From: Escherichia phage FriedrichZschokke
Direction: 5' to 3' (one strand)
Sequence record: MZ501067
Length of the DNA stretch: 64,000 nt
Shown here one piece after another: positions 45,492 to 46,513 of the stretch. Made by a program: the position numbers and the translations under genes. Every line of letters begins with the position of its first letter. The first letter of the stretch is position 1. Below the pieces are notes generated by a model, which was given only the letters and a program-made list of their open reading frames with translations, was not told the DNA's origin and searched no databases.

Positions 45492-45567
45492 TGGTCGAGG
45501 CAGTAGGGATCGAACCTACGACCCAGGACTTAGAAGGTCCTTGCTCTTCCTTCTGAGCTATGCCCCG
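45492..45567 (-). tRNA. tRNA-Arg (anticodon UCU)
   Basis: Hand-folded cloverleaf: 7 bp acceptor, T-loop UUCGAUC, anticodon loop CUUCUAA; CCA encoded. Confidence 0.85.
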
Positions 45568-45571
45568 TAAT

Positions 45572-45647
45572 TGGGGTGACCGATGGGAGTCGAACCCATG
45601 ACTACGAGAATCACAATCTCGAGTTCTACCAACTGAACTACGGCCAC
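45572..45647 (-). tRNA. tRNA-His (anticodon GUG)
   Basis: Hand-folded cloverleaf: anticodon loop UUGUGAU, discriminator C73, CCA encoded; no G at position -1 (U instead). Confidence 0.75.
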
Positions 45648-45761
45648 ATTAATACCTACTCCAACAATCAAGATGTCTTCACACGAAATTAAGAGAAGAG
45701 TGATCAGTTCAACCCCTATAATCGCGTCAAGTAGATATTAATGTGACAGTTGTCACAAATT

Positions 45762-45836
45762 TGGCGGACGTGATAGGATTCGAACCTATAACCAATCGCT
45801 TAACAGGCGATCGCTCTGCCATTGAGCTACACATCC
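45762..45836 (-). tRNA. tRNA-Asn (anticodon GUU)
   Basis: Hand-folded cloverleaf: anticodon loop CUGUUAA, T-loop UUCGAAU, CCA encoded. Confidence 0.8.
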
Positions 45837-45840
45837 AAAT

Positions 45841-45927
45841 TGGTGGGGAGTGGTGGAGTCGAACCACCCGAGTCGCAATGACAATGGATTTACAGTCCAC
45901 ACCGCTACCTCTACGGGATAACTCCCC
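45841..45927 (-). tRNA. tRNA-Tyr (anticodon GUA), long variable arm
   Basis: 87 nt; perfect acceptor GGGGAGU/ACUCCCC; anticodon loop CUGUAAA; variable region resembles E. coli tRNA-Tyr; CCA encoded. Confidence 0.8.
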
Positions 45928-45940
45928 TTAATTCTTAATT

Positions 45941-46015
45941 TGGTGGCCCTGGGTGGAATTGAACCACCATCTGGCGATTATGAGTCGCTTGCTTGAACCT
46001 TCCAGCTACAGGGCC
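45941..46015 (-). tRNA. tRNA-Ile (anticodon CAU, lysidine-type; Met not excluded)
   Basis: Anticodon stem-loop AGCGA-CUCAUAA-UCGCC closely resembles E. coli tRNA-Ile2; paired head-to-tail with tRNA-Thr as in the T4 Thr-Ile dimer. Confidence 0.75.
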
Positions 46016-46016
46016 T

Positions 46017-46092
46017 TGGTGCTGATTGACGGAATCGAACCGCCGACCTTCTCATTACAAGTGAGTTGCTCTACCTACTGAGCTAAATCAGC
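46017..46092 (-). tRNA. tRNA-Thr (anticodon UGU)
   Basis: Hand-folded cloverleaf: anticodon loop CUUGUAA; CCA encoded. Confidence 0.8.
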
Positions 46093-46097
46093 AAAAC

Positions 46098-46187
46098 TGG
46101 CGGAGGCGATAGGATTTGAACCTATGAGTCGCCGGAGCGACTGCCGGTTTTCAAGACCGGTGCATTAAACCACTCTGCCACGCCTCC
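46098..46187 (-). tRNA. tRNA-Ser (anticodon UGA), long variable arm
   Basis: 90 nt; anticodon stem-loop CCGGU-CUUGAAA-ACCGG; CCA encoded. Confidence 0.8.
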
Positions 46188-46189
46188 AG

Positions 46190-46263
46190 TCTCCATACAA
46201 GGATTTGAACCTTGGACCTCCTGATCCCAAATCAGGCGCTCTACCAAACTGAGCTACACGGAG
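46190..46263 (-). tRNA. tRNA-Pro (anticodon UGG)
   Basis: Anticodon loop UUUGGGA; CCA not encoded; 2 nt from tRNA-Ser (dimeric precursor arrangement). Confidence 0.8.
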
Positions 46264-46273
46264 TAAATTAAAT

Positions 46274-46347
46274 TGGAGCGGATAATGAGAATCGAACTCA
46301 CATCATCAGATTGGAAGTCTGAGGTAATACCATTATACGATATCCGC
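46274..46347 (-). tRNA. tRNA-Gly (anticodon UCC)
   Basis: Sequence closely parallels E. coli tRNA-Gly(UCC) (…UCGUAUAAUGG…CCUCAG-CUUCCAA-…); CCA encoded. Confidence 0.85.
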
Positions 46348-46352
46348 AAATT

Positions 46353-46439
46353 TGGTGCGAGAAGTGGGACTCGAACCCACAAGGAAATCATTCCGCAGCA
46401 TTTTAAGTGCTGTGCCTTTACCAATTTGACCATTCTCGC
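46353..46439 (-). tRNA. tRNA-Leu (anticodon UAA), long variable arm
   Basis: 87 nt; anticodon stem-loop CAGCA-CUUAAAA-UGCUG; CCA encoded; 1 nt from tRNA-Gln. Confidence 0.8.
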
Positions 46440-46440
46440 G

Positions 46441-46513
46441 CTGGGAATAAAGGACTCGAACCTTTGCATCCTGGAATCAAAATCCAGTGCCTTACCAACT
46501 TGGCTAATTCCCA
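46441..46513 (-). tRNA. tRNA-Gln (anticodon UUG)
   Basis: UGGGAAU acceptor; anticodon stem-loop CUGGA-UUUUGAU-UCCAG; resembles E. coli tRNA-Gln; CCA not encoded. Confidence 0.85.

Follow-up and report, generated by a model that had tools for sequence, protein, structure and literature searches.

An eleven-gene tRNA cluster in Escherichia phage FriedrichZschokke: a very probable T-even stable-RNA operon without a homing-endonuclease gene

Why should a T4-like phage carry genes for the tRNAs of Tyr, Asn and His, if T4 itself has none of the three? The question is raised by a tRNA cluster in Escherichia phage FriedrichZschokke (sequence record MZ501067), of which a stretch of 64,000 nucleotides (nt), here called the window, was analyzed. 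A preliminary description of this DNA, made by hand folding, had claimed 11 tRNA genes at positions 45492-46513. We called tRNA genes with ARAGORN, using the full 64 kb as well as the excised region with structures, and with the Rfam model RF00005 at its gathering threshold over the full 64 kb. ARAGORN found 11 genes, exclusively on the minus strand, spanning exactly 45492-46513, and no others in the window; the identical 11 genes were recovered by RF00005. Coordinates, order and anticodons were those of the preliminary description. The genes are given here in transcription order, with ARAGORN coordinates and RF00005 scores, together with the only long spacer between them.

46440-46513, minus strand: tRNA-Gln (UUG); 67.4 bits; no CCA encoded (G73, C, then the first base of tRNA-Leu)
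46353-46439, minus strand: tRNA-Leu (UAA); 59.3 bits; long variable arm; CCA encoded
46274-46347, minus strand: tRNA-Gly (UCC); 65.8 bits; CCA encoded
46189-46263, minus strand: tRNA-Pro (UGG); 66.8 bits; no CCA encoded (A73, C, U, then the first base of tRNA-Ser)
46098-46187, minus strand: tRNA-Ser (UGA); 62.6 bits; long variable arm; CCA encoded
46017-46092, minus strand: tRNA-Thr (UGU); 72.9 bits; CCA encoded
45941-46015, minus strand: CAU tRNA, probably of the Ile2 (lysidine) type, T2 allele; 59.9 bits; CCA encoded
45841-45927, minus strand: tRNA-Tyr (GUA); 30.3 bits; long variable arm, A73, CCA encoded
45762-45836, minus strand: tRNA-Asn (GUU); 74.1 bits; CCA encoded
45648-45761, minus strand: structured spacer, or tRNA-His leader, recognized by fold, inverted repeat, conservation and covariation
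45572-45647, minus strand: tRNA-His (GUG); 65.1 bits; C73, CCA encoded, U at position -1
45492-45567, minus strand: tRNA-Arg (UCU), T2 allele; 63.9 bits; CCA encoded

The ten tRNAs other than tRNA-Tyr scored between 59.3 and 74.1 bits (E-values 2.4e-14 to 2.7e-10). The preliminary description was to be given up if the Tyr, Asn and His candidates fell below the model threshold or if other anticodons were assigned. Neither was the case: against the threshold of 29 bits, tRNA-Asn and tRNA-His reached 74.1 and 65.1 bits, and tRNA-Tyr passed narrowly. The Gln-Leu, Pro-Ser and Thr-CAU pairs lie only 0 to 1 nt apart beyond the ARAGORN ends (one base between Thr and CAU), and the remaining spacers are 4 to 13 nt of A/T, with the exception of the 114 nt between Asn and His. 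The open reading frame (ORF) list of the window contains no ORF inside the cluster. Thermodynamic folds of the individual tRNAs yielded no cloverleaves and weak z-scores, which is uninformative and expected for tRNAs.

The cluster was compared with the tRNA operon of the T-even phages. Its location and strand, the core gene order with the tight pairs, and two stable-RNA genes downstream of tRNA-Arg are those of the T-even operon:

45371-45490, minus strand: homologue of rnaD (T4 species 2 stable RNA); local alignment, 101 of 118 columns identical to T4 rnaD
45226-45364, minus strand: homologue of rnaC (T4 species 1 stable RNA); 137 of 139 positions identical to T4 rnaC, with the T-arm-like CCGGGUUCGAAUCCCGG inside

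Furthermore, the cluster is flanked by minus-strand ORFs at 44677-44952 and 46611-46904, which are homologues of e.8 and trna.2, and the same flanks are present in T4, in the Shigella phage JK38 (MK962755) and in REP1, the closest match (99.9%). Judged from sequence, the cluster thus belongs to the T-even tRNA operon family by every testable feature. In line with this, the 2.2 kb around it are 97 to 99.9% identical to several hundred Tequatrovirus genomes (96.7 to 97.8% for PhiZZ23, wV7 and the slur phages), which identifies the window as DNA of a Tequatrovirus, a T4-like coliphage. The Tyr-Asn pair was found over at least 80% of its length in 446 phage-collection records, and tRNA-His together with its spacer, at no less than 95% identity, in about 190. 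An origin of the cluster as host-derived DNA or as an assembly chimera, for which no supporting evidence was found, is refuted by the flanks, which are phage genes in T4 order, by the E. coli tRNA-His and tRNA-Ile2 genes, which share only about 80% identity with their phage counterparts, and by junctions that are common to hundreds of independent phage genomes. We conclude with high confidence that the cluster is the T-even (Tequatrovirus) stable-RNA operon without a homing-endonuclease gene, that its tRNAs supplement the host pool, and that the T4 version is owed to segB.

In JK38, all 11 genes are present and annotated, and they agree with those of the window in order, strand and spacers, including the spacer between Asn and His. 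Identity is 97 to 100% per tRNA, with 100% for tRNA-Gln. In contrast to the window, JK38 has an extra ORF of 115 amino acids (aa) between tRNA-Arg and rnaD, and another of 157 aa that separates the terminator from e.8. T4 (NC_000866) agrees with the window in location, strand, the three tight pairs, leader and terminator, but its order is Gln, Leu, Gly, Pro, Ser, Thr, Ile, segB, Arg, rnaD, rnaC. Thus, as the preliminary description had stated, Tyr, Asn and His are additional to the eight tRNA genes of T4. At the slot where the window has Tyr, Asn, the 114-nt spacer and His, T4 carries segB, and the T4 Ile and Arg genes are different alleles, being only 62.7% and 65.8% identical to those of the window. 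In addition, T4 Ser and Ile lack an encoded CCA; T4 Ser has UAA where the window and T2 have CCA (46098-46101).

The T2 (T2L) region (PMC2330249) has nine tRNA genes, Tyr and Asn among them, and no segB. Its CAU tRNA, Asn and Ser genes are identical to those of the window, but the ORF trna.1 (phrog_16521) occupies the Thr slot, and His and an Asn-Arg spacer are missing. T6 (PMC13096335) shares the Gln-Leu-Gly block with the window and has a Tyr gene that differs by one base (C40 in the window, U40 in T6). It carries segB after Tyr, along with T4-type CAU and Arg alleles, and Asn, His, Pro and Ser were neither annotated nor found. REP3 has 10 tRNA genes and keeps the spacer, but has no His and a third Arg allele. 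In REP1, an ORF destroyed most of tRNA-Thr. The identities of the individual window genes to their counterparts were as follows.

Leu and Gly: 100% in T4, T2 and T6
Pro: 100% in T4 and T2; absent in T6
Ser: 96.7% in T4, 100% in T2; absent in T6
CAU tRNA: 62.7% in T4, 100% in T2, 64.9% in T6
Tyr: 97.7% in T2, 98.9% in T6; absent in T4
Asn: 100% in T2; absent in T4 and T6
Arg: 65.8% in T4, 98.7% in T2, 65.8% in T6
Gln: 89.2% each in T4, T2 and T6; 100% in REP1

According to these identities, the cluster is a mosaic in which the CAU tRNA, Asn and Ser genes are fully T2-like and Arg is nearly so. The T2-like CAU and Arg alleles of the window and the third Arg allele in REP3 indicate that the operon's 3' half acts as a set of exchangeable cassettes. 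Among the forms compared, the window appears as the complete one, in which no ORF is inserted. In T2 and REP1, the Thr slot holds ORFs of a single family, phrog_16521, to which no function is assigned; the REP1 depositor labeled its copy a putative homing endonuclease, and only the first ~12 nt of tRNA-Thr remain there. Compared with the T4/T2/T6 allele, the tRNA-Gln gene has 66 identical nt and eight differences. The differences are confined to the anticodon arm, where three base pairs of the stem have been exchanged in a compensatory manner and the window has U, the other allele C, at positions 32 and 38.

The difference between the window and T4 is accounted for by what is known about SegB. 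The preferred 27-bp site of this endonuclease lies within the tRNA-Asn gene of T2L, and in mixed infections SegB replaces about 1.25 kb with the Met(CAU), Tyr, Asn and Arg genes by the T4 version (PMC2330249). The locus in the window, with its T2-type tRNA-Asn gene (100% identical) and no ORF within the cluster, fits such a homing target. Since the Asn gene is identical to that of T2, the phage should be a target of SegB, and its tRNA-Asn gene probably carries the preferred site. T4 lacks Tyr, Asn and His because segB sits at that position: SegB cuts the T2-type tRNA-Asn gene, and in a mixed infection a locus of the window type would be converted to the T4 type.

Seen against these relatives, the cluster is already known, and clusters of this kind, in which 9 to 11 genes include Tyr, Asn and His, are common and annotated. 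A 2008 paper (PMC2330249) had already described the Tyr and Asn tRNAs of T2L, RB1 and RB3. Extra tRNAs are not unusual, and it is T4 that has the reduced form; the extra genes had appeared surprising in the preliminary description because T4 served as the reference.

The tight pairs bear on how the tRNAs mature. In T4, six of the eight tRNAs are made via dimeric precursors (2024 review, PMC11143913), and the suggestion that Gln-Leu, Pro-Ser and Thr-Ile correspond to these precursors holds, the pairs being equally present in T4 and closely spaced. The ARAGORN structures also bore out the proposed distribution of encoded CCA ends: CCA follows the discriminator base in Leu, Gly, Ser, Thr, the CAU tRNA, Tyr, Asn, His and Arg, while the 3' end of Gln (G73-C) runs into Leu and that of Pro (A73-C-U) runs into Ser. 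By analogy to T4, the operon would be transcribed as polycistronic precursors, host RNase P would cut each 5' end, and endo- and exonucleases would trim the 3' ends. The host CCA-adding enzyme would be needed for Gln and Pro only, and therefore the operon should depend less on this enzyme than that of T4. The Pro-Ser precursor of T4 lacks both CCA sequences, and on Ser, RNase P prefers CCA over UAA (PMC11143913). Since the CCA of tRNA-Ser is encoded in the window, the 3' trimming and CCA addition that precede RNase P cleavage of Pro-Ser in T4 should not apply to Ser here.

The assignment of the CAU tRNA to isoleucine rather than methionine was upheld. Its best E. coli matches are all annotated as tRNA-Ile (79 to 82% identity), and its anticodon arm, GCGACUCAUAAUCGC, is identical to that of an ileX-type gene of E. 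coli. The acceptor stem begins with G1-C72 and is of the elongator type, and therefore this is not an initiator tRNA. With a CAU anticodon, an elongator-type acceptor stem and kinship to ileX/ileY rather than to the Met tRNAs, it can reasonably be considered a tRNA-Ile2 of the lysidine type.

If the tRNAs supplement the host pool, the codons they read should be in demand. Therefore, codon usage of 84 mechanically called window ORFs (35% G+C) was compared with that of 41 annotated E. coli genes. Relative to this host sample, AGA was used 7.2-fold, AUA 3.4-fold, GGA 2.9-fold, UCA 2.8-fold, AAU 2.75-fold, UUA 2.6-fold, UAU 2.5-fold and ACA 2.2-fold. Among amino acids, Tyr was the most overrepresented (1.72-fold) and Asn the third (1.46-fold). 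His was the exception and was underrepresented, at 0.68-fold. Mature tRNAs from the operon would add to the host pool during infection. Eight of them would read A-ending or rare codons that are overused by the 35% G+C genome, and the Tyr and Asn tRNAs would serve the most and the third-most overrepresented amino acids of the phage ORFs. Since His codons are underused, codon demand does not explain tRNA-His.

The low score of tRNA-Tyr (30.3 bits in the full 64 kb, E 0.027; 37.3 bits when scored alone, E 4.7e-7) raises the possibility that Tyr, His or both are decaying or nonfunctional copies. The gene has the GUA anticodon, A73 and long variable arm of a bacterial tRNA-Tyr, but the acceptor and D stems are connected by 4 nt instead of the usual two (positions 8-9). 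In the Infernal alignment, 2 nt are inserted after position 9, followed by a D stem (CCGU/GCGG) with a normal D loop (AGAGGUA). The D arm drawn by ARAGORN was rejected in favor of this alignment, as its pairs are broken in homologues. The low model score is due to the 4-nt connector. The same connector length was found in Jiaodavirus and Vequintavirinae phages (UAGA, with CCGU/GCGG), in a T5-like phage (UAUU, with CUGU/GCAG, a C-G to U-A change) and in a Felix-O1-like phage (UAUC, with CCGU/GCGG). The connector is thus kept in homologues from Straboviridae, Felixounavirus, Tequintavirus and Vequintavirinae, and on these alignments it is a family trait and not a sign of decay. Decay would be in line with the noncanonical connector, with the description of T6 tRNA-Tyr as relatively unstable (PMC13096335), and with the missing identity element of tRNA-His described below. 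However, four phage families share the connector and the D stem, with compensatory change, the T6 tRNA-Tyr has biological activity and is detected by Northern blotting (PMC13096335), and tRNA-His scores 65 bits with a perfect cloverleaf that is conserved with compensatory changes in at least eight Tevenvirinae genera. We consider decay of either gene very improbable.

With the tRNA-Tyr gene of Escherichia phages FV3 and naam, whose genomes are about 137 kb, that of the window shares 96.7% identity, which suggests exchange between phage groups. A scan of IMG/VR with a pattern of the Tyr anticodon arm gave 107 phage Tyr tRNAs, but these were unrelated, and no member of this lineage was among them.

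tRNA-His folds into a perfect cloverleaf with a normal 7-bp acceptor stem (G1-C72), C73 and CCA. Of the features of a canonical tRNA-His, it has C73 and the GUG anticodon, but an encoded G at -1 that would pair with C73 is missing: position -1 (window 45648) is U, whereas E. coli hisR has G. The preliminary description was correct on this point. Together, G-1 and C73 are a major identity element of E. coli histidyl-tRNA synthetase (HisRS) (PMC9976931). U at -1 and C73 were present in all 24 T4-like loci that we collected, from Tequatrovirus, Jiaodavirus, Winklervirus, Mosugukvirus, Moonvirus, Kanagawavirus, Enterobacter phages and IMG/VR contigs. Across at least eight Tevenvirinae genera, the gene is conserved with compensatory stem changes. 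Homologous tRNA-His genes in KB57 (Vequintavirinae) and in the mycobacteriophage Bxz1 (Bixzunavirus) likewise combine U at -1 with C73 and thus lack G-1. When E. coli hisR including G-1 was used as the query, the alignments to T4-like phages began at query position 2, omitting G-1. A literature search revealed no report of a phage tRNA-His without G-1, though one may exist beyond the literature covered.

The 114-nt spacer upstream of tRNA-His is highly structured. Its fold has a free energy of -32.7 kcal/mol (z -4.36), and an inverted repeat was detected. The first 13 to 15 nt pair with the last 13 to 15 nt; the closing helix is formed by a 5' strand at 45742-45730 and a 3' strand at 45660-45648, and stops exactly at position -1 of tRNA-His. 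A small hairpin lies at 45756-45743. This leader is conserved upstream of tRNA-His in the 24 loci. Among them are 13 distinct leaders of 32 to 107 nt from at least eight T4-like genera, in which the interior is replaced and the helix is kept with compensatory changes. In an alignment of the helix, 97.8% of the cells are paired and 4 of 14 pairs are changed on both sides; the covariation score of 0.320, against 0.223 in shuffles, was reached by none of 500 shuffles, and slid registers paired only 38 to 55% of the cells. These values come from an alignment of the two strands that was built by hand and selected around the proposed helix, which favors structure. Many pairs are G-U, which would be A-C mismatches on the other strand, which suggests a structure of RNA on the tRNA strand. 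The leader had no Rfam match at E-values up to 1. In REP3 the helix is kept without tRNA-His, and therefore the link between the two is not absolute. The leader could be a processing or insulating helix or give rise to a stable excised RNA of about 95 nt; these are guesses.

Just 5' of the leader helix (45743-45756), the sequence UGUCAC can pair either with GUGACA, forming the hairpin, or with the start of tRNA-His, GUGGCC (45637-45647). The latter pairing extends the inverted repeat to 24 nt with 83% complementarity, and it may possibly compete with acceptor-stem formation.

The tRNA-His module is odd because it is kept in at least eight genera, because unrelated phages also lack G-1, because His codons are underused, and because G-1 is a major identity element of HisRS. 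It could be more than a plain translational supplement, with noncanonical maturation or charging, a role as nuclease decoy or replacement, or a leader that acts as processing element or stable small RNA. We regard this as unlikely, though clearly less so than decay.

A function in defense was also considered. The T6 tRNA-Tyr, which differs by one base from that of the window (98.9% identity), is seen on Northern blots and, if overexpressed or amplified, rescues T6 from Septu (PMC13096335, 2026). Deletion of the T6 tRNA region sensitizes T6, and T4, which has no tRNA-Tyr, cannot escape (PMC13096335). By analogy to this near-identical tRNA, the tRNAs of the window may refill or buffer pools that are drained by tRNA-cleaving defense nucleases of the host. 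A more far-reaching proposal is that the three extra tRNAs are kept mainly as counterdefense, replacing or decoying host tRNAs whose anticodon or variable loop is cleaved by nucleases (Septu, retron-Eco7 PtuAB, colicin-E5-like enzymes), rather than for codon supply. In its favor, a T5 tRNA-Tyr, which is a homologue of the Tyr family in the window, counters retron-Eco7 according to earlier work cited in PMC13096335, and the four substrates of colicin E5 include the tRNAs for Tyr, Asn and His (PMC1635277). Moreover, supply alone does not explain a tRNA for the underused His codons. However, T6 tRNA-Tyr is itself cleaved by Septu, and its wild-type copy number gives no protection (PMC13096335). 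Furthermore, Tyr and Asn agree well with demand, both for codons and for amino acids. In the phage Tyr and His tRNAs, the anticodon loop is the same as in E. coli, with no obvious escape change. For Asn, the loop was compared only with the presumed E. coli sequence. Counterdefense as the main reason for keeping the three genes is therefore a possibility that we put forward tentatively.

No evidence was found against the identification of the cluster as the T-even operon. The proposed supplementation of the host pool is only partly covered, and several points weigh against it. His is underrepresented (CAU 1.12-fold, CAC 0.27-fold), and tRNA-His lacks G-1, the major identity element of E. coli HisRS (PMC9976931), so that neither codon demand nor efficient charging is evident from its sequence. 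The codon comparison itself depends on mechanically called ORFs and on a host sample of 41 genes. Finally, the putative promoter and terminator of the operon were assigned by consensus alone. These two elements are located as follows.

46583-46607, minus strand: putative middle promoter of the MotA type, upstream of tRNA-Gln; TGCTTTA at 46607-46601 and TATTAT at 46588-46583, 12 nt apart, found by eye
45148-45174, minus strand: intrinsic-terminator-like, GC-rich hairpin, GCCCCGACC-GAAA-GGUUGGGGC followed by UUUUU, read from the sequence and conserved in T4 and REP1

The promoter stretch is invariant in T4, JK38 and REP1. It presumably represents a MotA middle promoter, since it resembles the T4 middle-promoter consensus. 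The hairpin is the likely end of the operon. A scan for sigma-70 promoters and terminators between 44900 and 47000 gave no more sites than shuffled sequence and listed neither the putative middle promoter nor the terminator hairpin. A second promoter within the Asn-His spacer had been considered and was dropped, as the scan showed nothing on the minus strand there. The leader upstream of tRNA-Gln had no significant structure (z -1.44), and therefore it differs in kind from the tRNA-His leader.

Downstream of the hairpin, at 44953-45147, the window differs from its closest relatives. REP1 and vB_EcoM-101117BS1 (99.8% identical) have about 555 bp with a 157-aa ORF (phrog_2280) between terminator and e.8. 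This ORF is absent from the window, as it is from T4, and the uninterrupted arrangement of terminator and e.8 was seen in none of the 25 top matches listed. The neighboring ORFs of the relatives had no Pfam matches, and in PHROGs they matched only families of unknown function.

In summary, an eleven-gene cluster as such adds nothing new, since clusters of this kind are annotated in hundreds of T4-like genomes and the difference between T4 and T2 was explained by SegB homing in 2008. The locus is, however, a clean example of the way in which a phage tRNA operon is worn down and rearranged by homing endonucleases, of phage tRNAs that match the codon demand of an AT-rich genome, and of phage tRNAs in an arms race with tRNA-cleaving defenses. 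If the tRNA-His module is indeed more than a translational supplement, a phage tRNA-His without the near-universal G-1 would bear on the identity rules of HisRS in the course of an infection, and on the reasons for which phages retain tRNAs without a demand from codon usage.

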